From NCBI GenBank assembly GCA_963555755.3, contig OY820905.2, positions 1,024,001-1,088,000 on the forward strand: 64,000 nucleotides of DNA, in the 5' to 3' direction. Below are positions 1 through 26,637 of this stretch, in pieces; the first letter of the stretch is position 1, and each line of letters starts with the position of its first letter. Position numbers and translations under genes: made by a program. The stretch is from Nitrospirales bacterium. GTDB lineage: Bacteria; Nitrospirota; Nitrospiria; Nitrospirales; UBA8639. Below the pieces are notes generated by a model. That model worked only from the letters and a program-made list of their open reading frames with translations. It was not told where the DNA came from and did not search any database.

Positions 1-304
1 TTGCTCCCGTGCTGTCGCTCTCACCCCGCCGGAGTGGTCAGGCGTCTCAGCCCTATTTCGCCTGCCCATGCGGTCTTCGTCCTACGGTCAGGGACTCGAC
101 CTCCGAGGTTCCGTACTTTCGAGGCTACCTCTGCGTTCACTTGCGTTACGGCCCGGGAACTCGCTCACCATCCTCTACGATGGCTTTGTCGATGGGCTTC
201 AGCGTCTCGGTTTCTCTCCACGCTGCCATCCAAGCTACAGGGCTCAGGCTCTTACCCTGGTGGGCTTGCTTCCCACTGAACAGTCTCGCCTTACCTGGAC
301 ACAC
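1..304 (-). mobile_element. Group II intron A, 5' part (domain I); remainder lies upstream of the window
   Basis: Minus strand starts GTGTGTCCAGGTAAGG (GUGYG consensus) at 304; an EBS1-like loop GACCGT (84-89) is complementary to the 5' exon end ACGGTT. Confidence 0.85.
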
Positions 305-406
305 AACCGTACGTGCGGTTCTCCCAAGCCGTTCACTTAATCTGTTGACACAAACCAGCAAACAGACATAAACAGCGCTTGTTTGCTGGCTTTCTTGTTT
401 TGGATC

Positions 407-2203
407 ATGCAGAAAAAATCTTCCGCAACTTCTACGCTGAAGCACCCTCGGATACCGCTCGAGTACGGTGGCTTCCAGATCAACCACTGCAAGTCTCCGG
501 TCTGCTCGAACTACGGCGTTCCGCCAGAACAAACATCGGTGCGTGGAAAAAATAGCTACACTCTGGATTCACGCAACCAAGGCATTTCATCCTGTATCTG
601 CACGTCCTGCGGCGAAGGATTCCCTCTCAAGAGCAACCTCGGCATCGCAGAAGAAGTCGAGCGCATGTCGGCCTACCTGTCGCCTCGTGAGGTGGCGTTC
701 TGCCGTAACGATGCCTGTACCAACCATACCGGTCAGGTGCCCGTAGGTACCGCTGGGGCATATGCCTCGTTCGGCAAGACCGCGATTGGCAGCCCCCGCT
801 GGCGCTGTAGCGTCTGCGGTAAGACGTTCTCACAGAACACCAAGGCCACCGCCCGGCAGCGGGAACATCACAAGAACAAGACCATTTTCAAACTGCTGGT
901 CAACAAGCTGCCCGTGCGCCGAATCATCGAAGTCGCCGACATCCACCCCAAGACCTTCTACCACCGCCTCGACTTCCTCCATCGCCAGTGCCAATCATTT
1001 GCCGCCCACCGCGAGCACGCCCTATCCACCCTCCCCATTCGGCGACTGTCCCTCGGCGTGGACCGGCAGGACTACCTTGTGAACTGGATGGTTCGCAAGG
1101 ACAAGCGCAACATTCAGCTATCGGCCATTGCATCAGTGGACAACGAACACGGTTACGGCTTCGGTGTCCACCTTCACTTCGACCCTTCTCTGGACAGCGA
1201 AGCTGTCCAAGCCGAAGTCGAGAAGAGCGGCGACCTTGGCATGCCCTATCCGCATCGTCGCGTTGCACGTCTGTGGCTCAATGCAGACCATGAGCGAGCC
1301 AGTGCCAAATCCCTACGCACTTCGCGGCGCAAACCCGGACTGCCAACGCAGATCGATGAAGCCTATGCCGCAGCATTGATGCGTGACGATATCGAAAGCC
1401 CCGATGCGCCGTCGCCCGTAGAACGACTTCCTGAATACGGGATGCAAACCCATGGCGAGTACACCATGTCTGGGCATTTTTTCTTCCTCAAACGCCTGCT
1501 GGGCAATATCCAAAAGTGGCGCTTCTTTATCGACCAAGACCCTGGACTGCGAGCCGCGTGCCTATCGGCGTTCCACGACGAGATCCGAGGCCGCACGGCG
1601 GATGCCTTCTCTGTTCGCATCACCAAAGATCTGACGGTGGACGAAACGCGTCAAAAATACAACGAAGCGAAGATGCTGTTCGTGCACGCAGAACTCGCGC
1701 ACCCAAAGATGAAGCCGCAGGAGGTCAAGTTGCTGCTGATCAAAGAGCGTCTGGCCTGTATGACGCCGCACGGGAAGTGGCAGGATCGGTGGCTTGACCA
1801 TCCTTTCCCGACCATGAGCGAGCCAGAGAAGACAGTGGCCTCCCTCACCAATCTGGGCGACTACGACGAAGAACACAAAGCTTGGCTCTACAACAAAGCG
1901 AGCTTGCATGGTGTCGATTCGTTCTTCAACCAAGTGCGTCGACGGCTCTCCCTGCTGGAGCGTCCGATCCATTCCAAATCCAACAATGGTCGGATATGGA
2001 ACGGATATTCTCCATATAACCCGGGTAATGTTGCAAAAGTACTCGACATCATGCGCACGGTGCATAACTACATCCTGACCGGCAAGGATGGCAAGACGCC
2101 AGCTGTGCGACTTGGATTGGCCCAAGCGCCGCTGGACTACGAAGACATTATTTATGGCTCCTCCGAAGAATTTGTGGGTACTTCTCAGGTAACTCCTAAG
2201 TAA
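407..2203 (+). CDS. Large transposase with N-terminal Cys/Zn-ribbon motifs and an IS1-like C-terminus; last residues replaced by MITE sequence
   Basis: Cys clusters, RWRCSVCGKTFS, HTH-like segment, GVDRQ / IDQD / GVDSFFNQVRR acidic motifs, KTPAVRLGL tail; fills the TIR-bounded element. Confidence 0.8.
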   Translation: MQKKSSATSTLKHPRIPLEYGGFQINHCKSPVCSNYGVPPEQTSVRGKNSYTLDSRNQGISSCICTSCGEGFPLKSNLGIAEEVERMSAYLSPREVAFCRNDACTNHTGQVPVGTAGAYASFGKTAIGSPRWRCSVCGKTFSQNTKATARQREHHKNKTIFKLLVNKLPVRRIIEVADIHPKTFYHRLDFLHRQCQSFAAHREHALSTLPIRRLSLGVDRQDYLVNWMVRKDKRNIQLSAIASVDNEHGYGFGVHLHFDPSLDSEAVQAEVEKSGDLGMPYPHRRVARLWLNADHERASAKSLRTSRRKPGLPTQIDEAYAAALMRDDIESPDAPSPVERLPEYGMQTHGEYTMSGHFFFLKRLLGNIQKWRFFIDQDPGLRAACLSAFHDEIRGRTADAFSVRITKDLTVDETRQKYNEAKMLFVHAELAHPKMKPQEVKLLLIKERLACMTPHGKWQDRWLDHPFPTMSEPEKTVASLTNLGDYDEEHKAWLYNKASLHGVDSFFNQVRRRLSLLERPIHSKSNNGRIWNGYSPYNPGNVAKVLDIMRTVHNYILTGKDGKTPAVRLGLAQAPLDYEDIIYGSSEEFVGTSQVTPK

Positions 2204-2266
2204 CTTCATGCTATCCTCCGTCGTCCGGGTGCGCCGCGCGCCATAAGGGCGCTAGGTACCTCCCCG

Positions 2267-2345
2267 CGTCATTCCCGACGTCTGTTATCGGGAATCCAGG
2301 TTCGTTCTTAAGATAGATCCCCGATAACCAACGTCGGGGATGACG
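2267..2345. repeat. REP-like palindromic doublet
   Basis: CGTCATTCCCGACGTCTGTTATCGGGAATCC ... GATCCCCGATAACCAACGTCGGGGATGACG. Confidence 0.65.
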
Positions 2346-2533
2346 GATTCAGGTTCACCAGACCTCGGCCTTTCTTCTCTCCTGTGCCTCCTCAGTTGCC
2401 TCACAAGTTACTTTCCGTCGTCTGGGTGGGCCGCGCCCCATAAGGGCGCTACTCAGGAGGTTTCCCACAAGGCCACATGCCATAGCCCCTGCACCGTAGG
2501 CTTAATCGGCTTGTGGACCCTGAGGGAAACTTC

Positions 2534-2769
2534 GGATCAATCGCAATTTTGGTGGAGTGAGACTCGCGTCTTGAGTCAGACCTTCCTTGACAGAATCCGT
2601 TCGCCCTGAGCTTGTCGAAGGGTCAGAAACTTCAATGTGTACCATTCATGGTTCGACAAGCTCACCACGAACGGAACGGGATTGGACGCCTAAATCAGAA
2701 CAGGAGCCCCTCGCATAGTATGTCCGTCATCGCCATAGGCCTCGACTCCACCAAAATTGCAACTGATCC
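2534..2769. mobile_element. 236-bp MITE (GGATCAAT family) nested in the 746-bp MITE
   Basis: IR GGATCAATCGCAATTTTGGTGGAGT / ACTCCACCAAAATTGCAACTGATCC; 8-bp TSD GAAACTTC. Confidence 0.9.
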
Positions 2770-2965
2770 GAAACTTCCCCATGAGTCAATTGAATATGAG
2801 CATCGAAATAAAACCGGTCCCCGGTGGGAAAATTCGTTGGTTTTTCAGTGCCTTGGAAAGGATTCGTTAGGTGCTCGACCCACAAATTTTCCTGAAGAGC
2901 CTTATTTATTTTGCATCAACAGATTAAGTGAACGGCTTGCAGTTCTCCCGCATACGGCTCTCCAG

Positions 2966-4327
2966 TCAGTAGGTTCCTATGGAGTGGACGAAACGAATAT
3001 GGGCATCATTCAGGCTCGTGAACCCATGATCCGCAAAGAAGGCGTTCGGCCACCGTTGATTGCGTGCGAGGCGTTGTCGATTTCTTCGGTTCCTTTTCAG
3101 AAGCATCCGGCGCAACCGCCGACGGATCATTCCCTCGTAGGCCTTGAAGATGTTCCAAAAACAGTGCCGAAAGTAGTTGAACCACCCTTGCGTCGAGCGA
3201 GTGAGCCGGTGGAGAATTACCGCCAGCGAGTCGCCCGATTTCTGCGGCGTCAGCTCGCGGATGCGGGCGATGAACTTTCGGTGGCTCTTCGCCCGTGGAA
3301 ACCGCAGCCGGCCTCGGAACGAATAGCCCAGAAACGAAAAGCTCTTCTCCCGCGAGTCCACGATGTGTGTTTTCTCGGGATGCCGTGTCAGCCCATTGGC
3401 CTCCACCCACCGGCGCACCTCGGCCAGCGCCGCTTCGGCTTCTTCCGGCGTGCGACACAGGATGACACAGTCATCCGCGTAGCGCACCATCTGAAATCCG
3501 AGATCGGACATCCGATGGTCCAGGGGCTTGAGATAGACATTCGACAGCATGGGAGACAGCACCGCGCCTTGCGGCACACCGGCTTCCGGCGTCCACTCCC
3601 GCAGTTCTTCCAGAATCCCCTGGTTCAGACACTTCTTCACCAGGCCCACCACACGGCGATCCGAGATCTTCTGTTGCACTCTGGCCACCAGTCGATCTTT
3701 CGGAATCGTCTCGTAGTACTCCTGCACATCCGCGTCGACAACATACACATACCCGGCGTCGAGCCATTCCTCGACGCACCGTAGGGCATCATGGCACCCG
3801 CGTCCGTGGCGAAAGCCGAAGCTTCGCGCATGGAACATGGCGTCCATAATCGGCTCAAGCACGTGGACCACTGCCGTTTGCACGACGCGATCCCGCACGG
3901 TCGGAATTCCCAACGGGCGCTTCGCCGACCTGTCGGGTTTGGAAATCCACCGCCGCCGCCCCGCTGCCGGACGATAGGTTCCGTCACCCAGTTCGGCTTG
4001 CAACCGATCGAGTTCCGCCCGCTCATGCTCGGCGAACTCCGAACACGTTTGCCGGTCAACGCCCGCAGCCCCGTTCTTGCCCAGGACCTTCTTGGCCGAG
4101 CAGGACAGGTTCAGGCTGCCAGACACCTTATCCCTCAACGTGTGCCATTTGCCTCCTCTCACTTTGTCTGCCATCAGTGTCGCCACCATGCGATCTGTCC
4201 ACACCGCTCGATGAGCCCACTGGTCGATCCCAGGAAGCTCCCCAGCCGGGGTAGCCGAACACGGCACTGTGACGGGGATGTCATCTCGACGCGGGGTCGA
4301 GGCTTGACGTGTCGGCGGTTGAGGCAT
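2966..4327 (-). CDS. ltrA: Group II intron reverse transcriptase/maturase without an endonuclease domain, probably decaying
   Basis: RPLGIPTVRDRVVQ, GVPQGAVLSP, RYADD, GWFNYF maturase motif; several atypical residues (DADVQEYYETI, YADDC). Confidence 0.9.
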   Translation of the reverse strand: MPQPPTRQASTPRRDDIPVTVPCSATPAGELPGIDQWAHRAVWTDRMVATLMADKVRGGKWHTLRDKVSGSLNLSCSAKKVLGKNGAAGVDRQTCSEFAEHERAELDRLQAELGDGTYRPAAGRRRWISKPDRSAKRPLGIPTVRDRVVQTAVVHVLEPIMDAMFHARSFGFRHGRGCHDALRCVEEWLDAGYVYVVDADVQEYYETIPKDRLVARVQQKISDRRVVGLVKKCLNQGILEELREWTPEAGVPQGAVLSPMLSNVYLKPLDHRMSDLGFQMVRYADDCVILCRTPEEAEAALAEVRRWVEANGLTRHPEKTHIVDSREKSFSFLGYSFRGRLRFPRAKSHRKFIARIRELTPQKSGDSLAVILHRLTRSTQGWFNYFRHCFWNIFKAYEGMIRRRLRRMLLKRNRRNRQRLARNQRWPNAFFADHGFTSLNDAHIRFVHSIGTY

Positions 4328-5078
4328 TGCACATCTACCTTCCTGCTCCCCTTCGCGCCACCGCGTTCTGGTGCACGGCTTCCCAGCTATTATGAGAGCT
4401 CTGACTTCTGTCGAGCCGCTTCATCCAACGTCATCGGTATCGCTTCGTTCGTTCCCCTGCGGCACGCGATACGGCACCGAGGGGCCTGGGCCATTGATCA
4501 CGCAGCGTCCCCCACTGCGAATGGTCACGACACGGCGTCCACGTCCTTCACCCGACAGATCTCCCTGCTTAGCTCGTTTGACCTTCCGACCATTCCATCT
4601 CCAACCACCACCTTGCCATTTCGCCACGGTCGCTTTCCCACGTTACGTCACCGCCGTGACTTGCCGCGTCTATCCCCCGGGCAGACTCTTAGGTCGAAGG
4701 GATCTGCCGTCGCGCGATCAAGGGTTCGGACATCGCTAGGAGCCTCCCCGACAGGCTTGGCCGAATCGAGTTCCCGTACGTTACGGACTGGTCGTTCGTC
4801 TCAGATTGCTCTCCACCCTTCCTCACGGAAACGCAGTGACCACTGTCGACTTCAGGCTGGTAACGTTCGCCTGAGAGGGACTTGCACCCTCCTGATCAAA
4901 CGCCTTCACAGGCGCACTCGCTGCAGCATCTCATGCTGCCTCTTCCTGGCGTCAGAGCCCCTTGGTCCGTGGGAAGAGGGCACGATAAGATCGTGCAGCG
5001 ACACAAGCAAGAAAGCTCACAGGAAGCAACGCCATGGCCAAGAAACTCCATGTGGCCAGAATTGGATGGCGGTAGGAT

Positions 5079-6116: not shown

Positions 6117-9100
6117 TTACGGATTCCTATGGACCGGATATTCGGTCGCGGTCCCAAAGTCCCAAATCGCGGTATCCCAGGTGGCATAGATGCCTGTATT
6201 GCTGGTGGGCGATTGCAACTCGACTGTCGTCTTGCCCTCCCCCGCCGCGCTGGTTGTGGTCTCACTGGTGTTCGTATCCCAGTAATTGGCGGTGGTGGCG
6301 GGGACGCCATACCTTTCCGGCAACCCCCCAAGCAGACCCCCCACAATCATGTTCCCACTCTCATTAACCCTCACCGCCCCAATAGCGTAGGTATGAGTGA
6401 GGGTGTTAGTCGCTCCATTATCCATCCACCCGATCAGGCCACCGGCAGCCTGGCCAGCCGTCACCATGGCAGTGGAGTAACTGTCGGCGATCGTGGAATA
6501 CTGCGAGGCGGCGCCCAGGAAACCGCCTGCCGCTCCTTGCGCGGCGGTGACTCCCGTCGTGTAGCTGGCCGAAATGCTGACCTCCTTACCCAACGTACCA
6601 GATATAAATCCGGCCAGCCCACCGGCATAATATTTCTCTGCTGTCACGTCTCCCTCCACTGAGACGTGGTCAATCTCACTGTCATCTAGTATCCATCCTG
6701 CAAGGCCGCCAACATAGTTATAAGCCGTGATGTTGACGTGGATCAGCACCAGGTTCCGAATCTCGCCATTCCTCACCACACCGAACAGACCTTGCCAATC
6801 TTCAGTAGGTCTGTTGATAAAAAGATTGTTGATGGTATGACCATTGCCTTCAAACACGGTTTGAAATTCTTGACCAGAGGAATATTTTCCAATACGTAAC
6901 CACCCCTTCCCGCTATTCCAAAAGGCATCGTTGGAATCGATGGCGCCATCGTCATTGGTGTCGAAATTGAGATTGGCGATGAGTTCGTAGCCGGAGCAGG
7001 TCACGATAGCCCCGTCACCCCCACACCCCGTCGTCACATCCTCAAACCCGTCATTGTATCCCGTGCCCGTGAGGTTGTTCCTGACATGATCCAATTGCTC
7101 CAAAGTCGCAATTTCAATGAGGCCATTGCCATCGTCGTCGATGTCGTTGACATTCACCACACCATCGCCATCGGTATCGAGGTCAAACTTCGCCGTGACC
7201 GTATACGGTTGATTCATCGTCAGGTGACAGTCTCCTGTCCCGCTACAGGCGCCACCCCATTCCGTGAAGACGGAGTCAAGATCGGCCACCGCCGATAGGT
7301 CCACTGCAGTCTCACTGGCAATGTCCTCGGTGCAGTCAGAGGGGCAAGATATTCCGGCTGGGCTGCTGGTGACAGTGCCACTGCCATCCCCAACGACGGT
7401 CACAGTGAGCGCGAAAAGCGGGTCAAACGTCGCCGTCACGCTTTGCACTTGATCCATCGTCACCTGACAGTTTCCCGTCCCGCTACACCCTCCTCCACTC
7501 CAGCCACTGAAGACGGAACCCGGATTGGCCGCGGCCGTTAAGGCCACGGTACTCCCACTGGCAATGTCCTCGGTGCAGTCAGCGGGGCAAGATATTCCGG
7601 CTGGGTTGCTGGTGACGGTGCCACTGCCTTGCCCGACGATGGTCACGGTGAGCGGGAAGAGTATGTCAAACGTCGCCGTAACCGCGTTCGCTTGATCCAT
7701 CGTCACCTGACAGGGTCCTATCCCACTGCAGACTCCGCCACTCCAGCCACTGAAGACGGAACCCTGATTGGCCGCGGCCGTTAAGGCCACGGTACTCCCA
7801 CTGGCAATGTCCTCGGTGCAGTCTGAGGGGCAAGATATTCCGGCTGGGCTGCTGGTGACGGTGCCATCCCCAACGACGGTCACGGTGAGCGGGAAGGCCG
7901 GGCCAAACGTCGCCGTGACGCTTTGCGCTTGATCCATCATCACCGCACAGAGTCCCGTCCCGCTACAGCCGCCGCCACTCCAGCCACTGAAGACGGAGCC
8001 CGCATTGGCCTGGACCGTCAGCGTCACCACCGTCCCCGGGTCATACACTGCGGCACAGTCATTGCCACACATGATCCCCGCAGGCGTGCTAGTCACCGTC
8101 CCACTCCCCGCCAGGGTGACTGTCAGCAATGGACTGCACCCCACCGTGCCACAGTGGGCCACTCTGAGGGCGCCATTCGTGGCGTCATAATAGCTGATCA
8201 CCGGGTACCCATCCGTCCCGATGGCCAGTGAGCTGGACCGCCCCACAGAGCCATTGTTGTCCACCGTCGTCGGCGTCTGAGCCCCGCTGCAGGCCGCATT
8301 GGTACAATGGACCACCTTGAGGTCATCATTCGTGGCATCCCAATAGCTGATCACCGGATTCCCATCCGTCCCGATGGCCAGTGAGCTGTACCGCCCCACA
8401 TAGCCATTGTTGTCCACCGTCGTCGGCAAGTCAAAGTCCATGCACGTCGCATTGGTGCAATGGACCACCTTGAGGGCACCCGGCCCCCCGTTATAATAGC
8501 TGATCACCGGATTCCCATCGGTCCCGATCGCCAGCGAGGTGTGCCATCCCATAATGCCGCTGCTATCTACCGTCGTCGGCGGGTCAAATTCCGTGCAGTC
8601 CGCACTCCTACAATGGACCACCTTGAGGGCACTATTCGTCCTGTCATAATAGCTGATCACCGGATACCCATCCGTCCCGATGGCCAGCGAGGTGTACGCT
8701 CCCACATCGCCGCTGCTGTCCACTGTCGTTGGTGGGTCAAATGCCGCGCACTCCGCATCGGCACAATGGACCACCTTGAGGTCATCATTCGTGGCGTCAT
8801 AATAGCTGATCATCGGATACCCATCCGGCCCGATCGCCAGTGAGGTGTCCCACCCCACATCGCCGCTGCTATCCACCGTCGTCGGTTCGTCAAATTCCGT
8901 GCACGTCGCATTGGTGCAATGGACCGCCTTGAGGTCATCATTCGTGCTGTCATAATAGCTGATCACCGGATACCCATCCGTCCCGATCGCCAGCGAGGTA
9001 TGCAGCCCCACATTGCCGCTGCTGTCCACCGTCGTCGGCGGGTCAACAGTCGTGCAGTTCACACTGCTGCAGTGTTGCACCTTGAGGGCAGTATTCGTGG

Positions 9101-9434
9101 CATCAAAATAACTGATCACCGGATACCCATCCTCCCCGATGGCCAGCGAGGGGAAGTCCCCCACATTGCCCTCCGTATCCACGGTGGTGAGAAGGATTTG
9201 GCCACTGTTATCCACCGTGATCGTGATGGCTGAGGTCGTCCAGAGATTATCAGCCGCGTCGATGATCTCGGCATCAATGCTATGAGACCCTTCGGGCCCG
9301 TTCCTCGTCTGCCACGTGCACTCGTAGGGCGCGCTGGTATCGATCGGACAAGGCCCAGCATCCCCATCAATCCGAATCTGCACGCTGGCTACCGCAATAT
9401 TATCCGCGGCCTCCACGCGGATACAGTGGCCCAA
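6117..9434 (-). pseudogene. 5'-truncated large surface protein: partial Ig-like domain, 7 beta-propeller-like repeats, 4 InlB-B-like repeats, Ca-binding DxDxDG motif, GLUG-type C-terminus
   Basis: 7x SLAIGxDGxPVISYY...LKVVHC; 4x GTVTSxPAGIxC...FSGWSGG; DTDGDGVVNVNDIDDDG; VGGLAG repeats; no signal peptide or credible start. Confidence 0.75.
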
Positions 9435-25695: not shown

Positions 25696-26637
25696 ATGAT
25701 TACCGAATTTGTCATCACCTCAGGCGAAACCCGGAAACGGCTCGATGTATTTCTCTGCCACCGCGAACCGGATATTTCACGTACAGGGATTCAGCGATTA
25801 ATTGAGTTGGGCCGAATCCGACTGAACACCTTCGTCGTCAAACCAAGCCACATCATCAAACCAGGCGACCGCATCACCATGGACACGCCCCAACCAGAAC
25901 CCTTAACCATCGATGGAGAGACGCTGCCCCTTGATATTCTTTATGAAGACGACACGGTACTCGTCATCAATAAACCAGCAGGCATCGTCGTGCACCCAAC
26001 TTCTGGAAATTGGTCAGGGACCTTACTGAACGCTCTCCTTTCACACTTTCAAAGCAATGAAGCAAACCAAAGCGCTAGGAAGGAAACACCCAAACCGGGA
26101 TTGGTTCATCGGTTAGACAAACATACATCAGGGGTCATGGTTATTACCAAAACGGCCGCAGCCCATCGTTCACTCACTTCCCAGTTCGAGCAGCACACGA
26201 TTACTCGGGTGTACGAAGCGTTGATTTGGGGCAAGCCCAAAGACAAAACAGGGGTGATTCAGTTGCCAATCGGCCAAGATGTGAAAAACCACAAATTAAT
26301 CTCACCACAAACCGATCAGCCGAAGCATGCCATCACGGAGTATCACGTGATACAACATTTTGAGGAAACAGCATCGCACGTACGGCTCTCCCCACGAACA
26401 GGCAGAACCCATCAACTGCGCGTACACATGGCATCAATCAATTGCCCAATCTTAGGAGATACCACCTATGGCAGAGAAAAGGTGAGCCACATAGAAGGGA
26501 TTCCCATCCCTCGTGTCATGCTCCACGCACGAATACTAGGCTTTCATCATCCTTCTCTAGGAACCTTCCAAGAATATTCAGCGGACTTGCCCTCTGATAT
26601 GCAGCAAATTGGTCAAACATTAAAAAGCCAATCCTAA
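25696..26637 (+). CDS. RluA-family pseudouridine synthase (RluD-like)
   Basis: S4 domain, NKPAGIVVHP, HRLDKHTSG, TGRTHQLRVH. Confidence 0.95.
   Translation: MITEFVITSGETRKRLDVFLCHREPDISRTGIQRLIELGRIRLNTFVVKPSHIIKPGDRITMDTPQPEPLTIDGETLPLDILYEDDTVLVINKPAGIVVHPTSGNWSGTLLNALLSHFQSNEANQSARKETPKPGLVHRLDKHTSGVMVITKTAAAHRSLTSQFEQHTITRVYEALIWGKPKDKTGVIQLPIGQDVKNHKLISPQTDQPKHAITEYHVIQHFEETASHVRLSPRTGRTHQLRVHMASINCPILGDTTYGREKVSHIEGIPIPRVMLHARILGFHHPSLGTFQEYSADLPSDMQQIGQTLKSQS

Follow-up and report, generated by a model that had tools for sequence, protein, structure and literature searches.

The window analysed here is a stretch of 64,000 nucleotides from a Nitrospirales bacterium (contig OY820905.2, positions 1,024,001 to 1,088,000 of the forward strand), and near its left end an insertion sequence (IS) lies between both arms of the domain V (DV) of a group II intron, called intron A here. 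We consider it quite probable that this is a recently mobile IS whose predicted D-D-D transposase likely reads a symmetric 27-bp motif best matched by short-stemmed DVs, with duplication of 9 bp. The features are listed in window positions, with terminal inverted repeats abbreviated as TIRs, target-site duplications as TSDs, and with MITEs standing for miniature inverted-repeat transposable elements; coordinates preceded by C1 refer to the source genome, G000.

1 to 304, minus strand: 5' part of a second group II intron, intron B, with its GTGTG start at 304 and a match to Rfam group-II-D1D4-4 at 141-278; the whole intron spans C1:1022338-1024304
305 to 315, minus strand: 3' arm of the intron A DV, from its match to the uninterrupted intron A DV and a DV matrix score above threshold
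316 to 324, plus strand: left TSD of the IS, 9 bp, CGGTTCTCC, one change from the empty site
325 to 348, plus strand: left TIR, perfect over 24 bp
407 to 2927, plus strand: transposase gene, natively 588 aa, with eight conserved cysteines (residues 26-137), a helix-turn-helix (HTH, residues ~155-206), D219, D376, D504/R511 and an IS1-like tail
2148 to 2155, plus strand: left TSD of the nested MITE, 8 bp, TTATTTAT
2156 to 2901, no strand: nested non-coding MITE, 746 bp, ends GGCTC(C/T)TC, five genome copies
2902 to 2909, plus strand: right TSD of the nested MITE, 8 bp
2916 to 2939, minus strand: right TIR, perfect over 24 bp, which includes the transposase stop codon (2925-2927)
2940 to 2948, plus strand: right TSD of the IS, 9 bp, CAGTTCTCC, in the DV loop region
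2949 to 2962, minus strand: 5' arm of the intron A DV with the AGC triad
2966 to 4327, minus strand: reverse transcriptase (RT)/maturase open reading frame (ORF) of intron A, 453 aa (TIGR04416 above cut-off, RVT_1, GIIM)
4328 to 4917, minus strand: 5' RNA domains of intron A, with 98-99% identical full-length paralogues; the 5' end GTGCG (4917) was placed by eye

Intron A contains intron B and the IS, and the IS in turn contains the MITE; intron B is inserted directly after the 3' arm of the intron A DV, and domain VI (DVI) of intron A follows the 3' end of intron B, outside the window. The perfect 24-bp TIRs and the 9-bp TSD with one mismatch that an earlier note had described were borne out, and all the coordinates and residues that it named were verified. 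If 2 mismatches are allowed, the TIRs stretch to 30 bp. Two intron A copies that are uninterrupted, at C1:1007632-1007710 and 4586855-4586933, serve as empty sites, and in both the 9-mer occurs once and in its right-hand form. Since these copies have a single 9-mer, insertion with target duplication is proven, and because both hold the right-hand form, the left TSD is the altered copy. Excision restores an intact DV, as the earlier note had claimed, but intron B separates this DV from DVI. The note had used DV as a marker of the boundaries, which holds; it had not remarked that insertion into DV is the recurring target of a whole clade.

Once the nested MITE is subtracted from positions 325-2939, an IS of 1,861 bp remains, whose non-coding sequence is limited to 82 bases on the left, with none on the right. 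Four near-identical copies, with 8-18 differences per 1,861 bp, are present in the source genome. Those at C1:1251115 and C1:3058590 have perfect 9-bp TSDs, and the three copies other than that of the window are free of the MITE; all retain D219, D376 and D504. Judged from these genomic signs, the element is a real IS that has moved recently. No transposase copy was found in the 40 related genomes examined, no end-to-end (circle) junction in the contigs of four public runs (contigs drop rare forms), no empty allele of the exact window locus in a further set of public runs and no sigma-70 promoter at 300-480. Pieces of the IS are present in one RNA-labelled run, which is no proof of expression.

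All four copies in the source genome sit at the identical DV position, in both orientations and in at least two intron families. The window copy and the one at C1:3058590 are both in intron A, in opposite orientations, and the copy at C1:1251115 is in the DV of a different intron. Copy L002 (C1:775532-777392) is flanked by an intron A arm and, opposite to it, by the arm of another intron, mixed flanks that point to recombination or a replicative event; its right flank keeps only 121 bp of intron A, after which another repeat begins. A split DV cannot home, and from this role of DV it follows that intron mobility cannot have spread the IS copies.

A metagenome scan for the TIRs gave at least 134 loci in 35 of 64 parts. 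With genome and plasmid loci, 175 end matches were listed, of which 165 were unique and 150 were used; duplicates and ends with less than 25 nt of flank were dropped. The ends were split by TIR variant into those of clade A, to which the window element belongs and whose proteins share about 61-100% identity within the matched pieces, and all others (35-50%). All counts of ends given below are among the ends listed, and none draws on the loci L009, L203, L205 and L207-L209 of genome G278. A DV matrix made from 26 independent Rfam DVs, with 0.05% false positives per half, was passed by 35 of 87 distinct clade A ends vs 1 of 63 others, and the sole passing end outside clade A by TIR (L141) belongs to a 74%-identical clade A element. 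After curation, 36 of the 88 clade A ends lie in DV, at 35 different target 21-mers; outside the source genome 29 of 81 ends do so, at 26 of 68 loci. In this curation two ends that had passed the DV 5'-arm matrix (L031 and L087) were rejected as false positives, their other flanks not being DV, and two missed arms whose partner arm scored were added. Among the DV 5'-arm ends, 11 have 750 nt of flank or more, and 6 of these have an RT upstream that is correctly oriented; Rfam D1-D4 matches were obtained for L007 and L035. Clade A is monophyletic (SH-aLRT 100 in a quick tree whose deep branches are poorly supported), and users of DV and non-DV sites are intermixed in it; the near-identical L006 and L007 occupy one DV site and one non-DV site. 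The earlier note had suggested testing homologues for similar TIRs and 9-bp TSDs: related ends occur family-wide and, of the 33 elements with both ends paired, 19 show a 9-bp repeat without mismatch and 3 have 8 of 9 (22 in all), with 2 more showing 10 bp. For the homologues in L013, L014 and L020 the search for TIRs gave nothing, and for that in L015 a single end.

At least eleven MITEs of 162-196 bp with clade A ends were also recovered, three of them in DV. Non-autonomous elements of this size with family ends are L023, L027, L031, L032, L033, L071, L087, L088, L123, L137, L143, L064, L084 and L091, several of which are one 174-bp sequence family.

We then looked at what distinguishes the sites outside DV. 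Non-DV clade A ends have C-C-G at positions -18 to -16 (77%, 77% and 60%) and a symmetric SRRWWWYYS repeat. The motif is thus CCG-N6-[9 bp]-N6-CGG, 27 bp long and symmetric about its SRRWWWYYS centre. A symmetric matrix was trained on 47 non-DV clade A half-sites alone; L029 (identical inverted flanks, likely an assembly artefact), L053 (off register), L023+, L007- and L076+ were excluded from the training. This non-DV matrix ranks the four occupied sites at 0-11 of the 4,609,711 positions of the source genome, and 10 of its top 12 positions are empty DVs; with shuffled controls the occupied sites rank at 1.0-3.8 million. DVs with a 10-nt centre and class C-type short DVs rank at 26,000 or worse, the intron B DV (CCC...GGG) at about 480, and all of these are unoccupied. 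Only some intron lineages are exposed, since a 9-nt centre is present in only 6 of the 26 reference DVs. These genome comparisons make it likely that no sequence fits the transposase's own motif better than DV does. An eight-copy repeat (C1 790595, 1384640, 1408453, 1694336, 1804190, 2357215, 2551306 and 2863091) scores just below DV with the clade A matrix. The target motif A(A/G)(G)CCG resembles bases 2-7 of the TIR (AAGCCG; window 326-331), and one domain might read both the IS end and the target.

The remainder of the family appears to use other sites. In clade B ends, positions -22 to -14 form an A-tract and positions -13 to -8 a GC stem, and CCG peaks at -12 in this clade, compared with -18 in clade A. 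A terminator-like rule catches 23 of 62 clade B ends vs 2 of 88 clade A ends (background 1.5%), and the clade B matrix retrieves terminator-like hairpins from the source genome. That the rule is post hoc, written from the flanks themselves, and catches only these 23 ends speaks against a general preference for terminators. A Pontibacillus relative (25% identity) has its perfect 9-bp repeat in the middle of a terminator-like hairpin. In a Marinobacter relative an IS3-type coding frame is interrupted, with a 9-bp repeat and a clade B-like A-tract motif, and a Rhizobium relative appears, by eye, to interrupt an IS3-type frame with a 10-bp repeat; the 35%-identical relatives L016:2903-4945 and L017:2883-4768 are both within IS3-type genes (L017 by eye). 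A full-length homologue (23% identity, E 6e-30) is encoded by the 3,276-bp dfrG element (ORFU1/ORFU2; Q4H3Y2), which carries the trimethoprim-resistance gene dfrG in staphylococci and enterococci. Descriptions in print call it a putative mobile element, label its ORFs hypothetical or speak of an 'insertion element protein', and name no IS family (PMC8544886, PMC8638950). The ends of this element, TAAGTAGTTCAGTT, are related to those of the family. In 3 of 4 records (L210:829-4104, L211:829-4093, L212:829-4104 and L018:2329-5604), which are the three readable sites, it lies in A-tract/stem/T-tract hairpins, and the four records show repeats of 9 bp, 9 bp, 9 of 10 bp and none. Unlike the IS studied here, the dfrG element carries passenger genes and is found in terminator-like hairpins, not in DV. 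Viral contigs gave a single TIR match, with an A-tract flank, and phage records only two copies of the dfrG element. We infer that terminator-like targets are ancestral in the family, in whose tree the deep branches are poorly supported.

Several observations weigh against the main reading. The ends of the metagenome scan are not fully independent; 52 of the 88 clade A ends (~60%) lie outside DV; no RT was found upstream of 5 of the 11 testable DV 5'-arm ends, two of which are the discarded L031 and L087; and 9 of the 33 paired elements have no matching repeat. When DV-like sites were purged from the training set, the occupied sites moved from the top to ranks 2-28 (n=36), 19-978 (n=29) and 126-2,812 (n=27), so that the top ranking may partly reflect DV-like training sites, or else DV has extra determinants. 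Because about 60% of the clade A ends lie elsewhere, DV targeting is a preference only. Where the two flanks of a copy do not match, this would be in keeping with a replicative event or with recombination of one copy with another. The best explanation is that the transposase reads the sequence of double-stranded DNA, with room for extra DV determinants.

If the transposase instead recognised a structure, be it single-stranded DNA or a hairpin or cruciform extruded from DV or from terminator stems, it would be understandable that DV and terminators are both inverted repeats, that folding of the DV sites gives z between -2.1 and -5.6 (the chimeric L002 excepted) and that three of four clade B sites reach z of -7.5 to -9.6. 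Yet at the nine paired non-DV clade A sites the hairpin does not go past the motif: only 9 of the 54 positions of the variable N6 arms are complementary and z is -2.6 to +1.0, with the CCG distance unchanged. DVs with a one-base-longer centre fold equally well and are unoccupied, and the site of the Marinobacter relative is an IS3 coding frame that bears a clade B-like A-tract motif. We thus regard structure recognition as unlikely. Slightly less probable still is that targeting is assisted, the transposase being recruited by the RT/maturase of the intron or by its RNA (at terminators, by RNA polymerase), in the way suggested for ISLre2/TnGBS at promoters. In favour of this, all four copies are in DV even though, after the strictest non-DV training, up to 2,812 positions of the source genome score as well or better, and a host-factor route has been put forward for promoter-targeting Mutator-like ISs (PMC3942029). 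Against it, the motif alone predicts DV well and both orientations occur. The 82 non-coding bases on the left and none on the right give no room for a guide RNA of the element's own, and a guide-RNA mechanism was rejected for this reason. It is very improbable that selection alone is at work, with loose insertion followed by survival of the intron copies owing to the dispensability of introns. Bacterial group II introns are described as lying mostly in non-essential regions (PMC3522654), and the source genome offers at least 35 DV matches, but some 2,000 intron positions would be tolerable and every intron insertion seen is at one of them; moreover, the motif is common to the non-DV sites. Reading of double-stranded sequence by the transposase is therefore the explanation that we retain.

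Searches with phmmer gave 1,554 clusters (50% identity) related to the transposase at E ≤0.001, 396 of them at ≤1e-30. In 108 diverse members D219 is invariant (108/108), D376 is D in 103 and E in 4, D504 is D in 95 and N in 9, and the arginine at +7 (R511) is present in 107. The three conserved aspartates fit a predicted D-D-D/E layout, in support of the D-D-D centre proposed in the earlier note. The AlphaFold model (pLDDT, the predicted confidence per residue, 86 over the full length and 95 for residues 199-588) has the strand and helix order of an RNase H fold, for which the earlier note had proposed a structure prediction as a check: D219 is in strand 1 (E211-225), D376 at the end of strand 4 (E368-376) and D504 in the next core helix (H501-514), and insertions follow strands 3 and 5. 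The RNase H layout (D, D and D/E positions, rule from PMC3942029; K/R at +7, rule from bioRxiv 10.1101/2022.12.17.520857) is present in the predicted model only. The fold was assigned from this secondary-structure order and from Foldseek, whose top matches are RNase H-fold proteins (ISCth4, Tn5, Mu, Transib, piggyBac and Argonautes, with TdpAB first in the domain run). A point to the contrary is that no match reached E 0.001, the best being TdpAB at 1.3e-3; ISCth4 gave E 5.4e-3 to 6.6e-3 with a probability of 0.92-1.00 in both runs. The protein is predicted to be an RNase H-fold D-D-D transposase.

No Pfam or NCBIfam family passed its cut-off with this protein, in line with the earlier suggestion of an unrecognised family; the best was NF033558 (IS1), at 31 bits for a cut-off of 100 and over residues 123-195 only. 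With 81 family members, Pfam and NCBIfam gave matches at the level of the zinc ribbon and HTH only, as did a sequence search of the PDB at the zinc-finger level; NF033558 matched weakly in 76 of the 81, and PF03400 in none. Database records label the relatives 'hypothetical protein' or 'insertion element protein'. The family is a large one without a name in the libraries searched, made of predicted DDE/D insertion sequences.

The single-ORF type of IS1 is one of the closest known systems. Comparison with the IS1-family profile gave E 1.4e-6 for the HTH and about 1e-6 for the C-terminal tail (YN...TPAM..G), which supports the IS1-like zinc ribbon and tail noted previously, and IS1 is the nearest named family in the ESM Atlas (0.88 and 0.82), which is a lead only. 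The arrangement of zinc ribbon and HTH ahead of the catalytic domain is also as in IS1, and the 9-bp duplication agrees with IS1, which duplicates 8-9 bp. IS1 ends begin with GG, whereas those of the family are 5'-(C/T)AAG, seen as CAAG, CCAG or TAA(G/C). The protein also differs from IS1 in its size (588 aa vs about 280-315 aa in the IS1 proteins aligned), an extra N-terminal four-cysteine module, two large insertions in the catalytic domain, strong target specificity, and the Asp or Asn at the third residue, where E202 is invariant in the IS1 alignment (correspondence by eye), as had been proposed for Asp. Membership in IS1 thus failed on model score, third residue, size and ends. With hhalign against a low-diversity IS1 profile, the two catalytic strand blocks gave no significant match (E 0.067 and 0.21, with shuffles at 0.07-0.46). 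We consider the transposase likely to be a distant, enlarged offshoot of the IS1 type.

Other families are less close. To the Mutator-like families (IS256, ISLre2, ISKra4) the protein is similar in the helical insertion between the second and third acidic residues and in having ISCth4 as the top transposase match, not significant, in both Foldseek runs; some of these families are target-specific as well, such as the promoter-targeting ISs (PMC3942029). It is unlike them in lacking a catalytic-domain model match and the C/D(2)H motif after strand 5 (consensus, by eye), and in its IS1-type tail. IS6 and IS1595 gave no catalytic-domain model match, one member matching the IS1595 zinc ribbon only; IS6 transposases have 213-254 aa vs 588 aa here, and a replicative pathway has been described for them (PMC7986276). 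The repeat is 8 bp in these families vs 9 bp here. The earlier note had likened the TIRs to IS4-type ends, which is unsupported: DDE_Tnp_1-type/IS4 models match none of the 81 members, and kinship with IS4 was rejected.

From these data a mechanism can be proposed. A multimer of the transposase would bind both TIRs through its zinc-ribbon/HTH region, D219, D376 and D504 would hold the metals, and two symmetric halves would contact the CCG 7-9 bp outside a staggered 9-bp cut. Insertion would split the catalytic hairpin and leave the intron unable to splice or home, and the IS would rest in DNA that is likely dispensable to the host. The wider family would prefer A-tract/GC-stem sites such as intrinsic terminators, and in clade A the read-out would have shifted by about 6 bp outwards, giving a motif that DV fits. 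The short MITEs of 162-196 bp with the same ends would likely have moved in trans.

Targeting of a conserved site of another element recalls the ISAba32 subgroup of the IS1202 family, which seeks the XerCD site (dif/pdif) and has sister subgroups that differ (bioRxiv 10.1101/2022.12.17.520857, PMC10132070). As described there, IS1202 encodes an IS481/IS3-related DDE enzyme of 400-500 aa, with TGT ends in two subgroups and a 5-6 bp repeat beside the site, whereas the IS studied here has a 9-bp repeat in the centre of the site and inserts in either orientation. Introns landing in IS elements are well documented, and introns that home into ISs or other introns (RmInt1/ISRm2011-2, twintrons) show the same fixed-site nesting (PMC3522654), which intron B displays beside the IS. 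Here the direction is reversed, since a DNA transposase lands in the catalytic domain of a ribozyme. In the open-access literature searched, no paper was found on an IS that prefers this domain, and PMC4853749 has nothing on the matter.

Concerning the surroundings, DV is a landing site common to intron B and the IS, 11 bp apart. Among the 14 intron B copies of C1, the 5' end follows the DV 3' arm of other introns in 11, its own 3' end in 2 and another sequence in 1. The copy adjoining the window has a longest open frame of only 165 aa. Split DVs were not detected by Rfam, as expected. Next to intron A, positions 6117-9434 (minus strand) encode a 1,105-aa repetitive surface-type protein with beta-propeller-like and immunoglobulin-like repeats.

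The nested MITE sits in the last codons of the transposase ORF, where it swaps the last four residues for a 14-residue read-through (598 aa, stop at 2201-2203). Its removal restores the native C-terminus, as had been claimed: 588 aa from 407, ending YEDIIYFASTD with TAA at 2925-2927, as in the three other copies and in homologues, e.g. P0002-P0007. Of the 4 public runs examined, 3 contain the join 2147>2902 that lacks the MITE. The TSDs of the MITE are AT-rich, and within it smaller palindromic repeats (2217-2254/2414-2451, 2267-2345, 2524-2779 and 2596-2675) are abundant genome-wide. Ends related to those of the 746-bp MITE occur at C1:560924/561244, 775321 and 796784; its parent transposase was not found.

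Altogether, we see about even chances that these elements form a widespread, undescribed IS family of IS1 ancestry with a D-D-D centre and symmetric targets of 27-40 bp, in which one clade is a dedicated parasite of group II introns that disables DV and the others, including the dfrG element, seek intrinsic terminators, the two being linked by a small shift in read-out. If so, a small shift in read-out would have moved the family from one kind of safe landing site to another. An IS that prefers DV would silence retroelements and be a new front in the conflict between mobile elements. The transposase is a natural single-protein enzyme with a long and predictable target, and the two sister clades with different targets make the basis of target choice directly testable. 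The unclassified dfrG element gains a family, and for dfrG in plasmids, prophages and SCCmec a rule of terminator-like hairpin plus 9-bp repeat can be offered.

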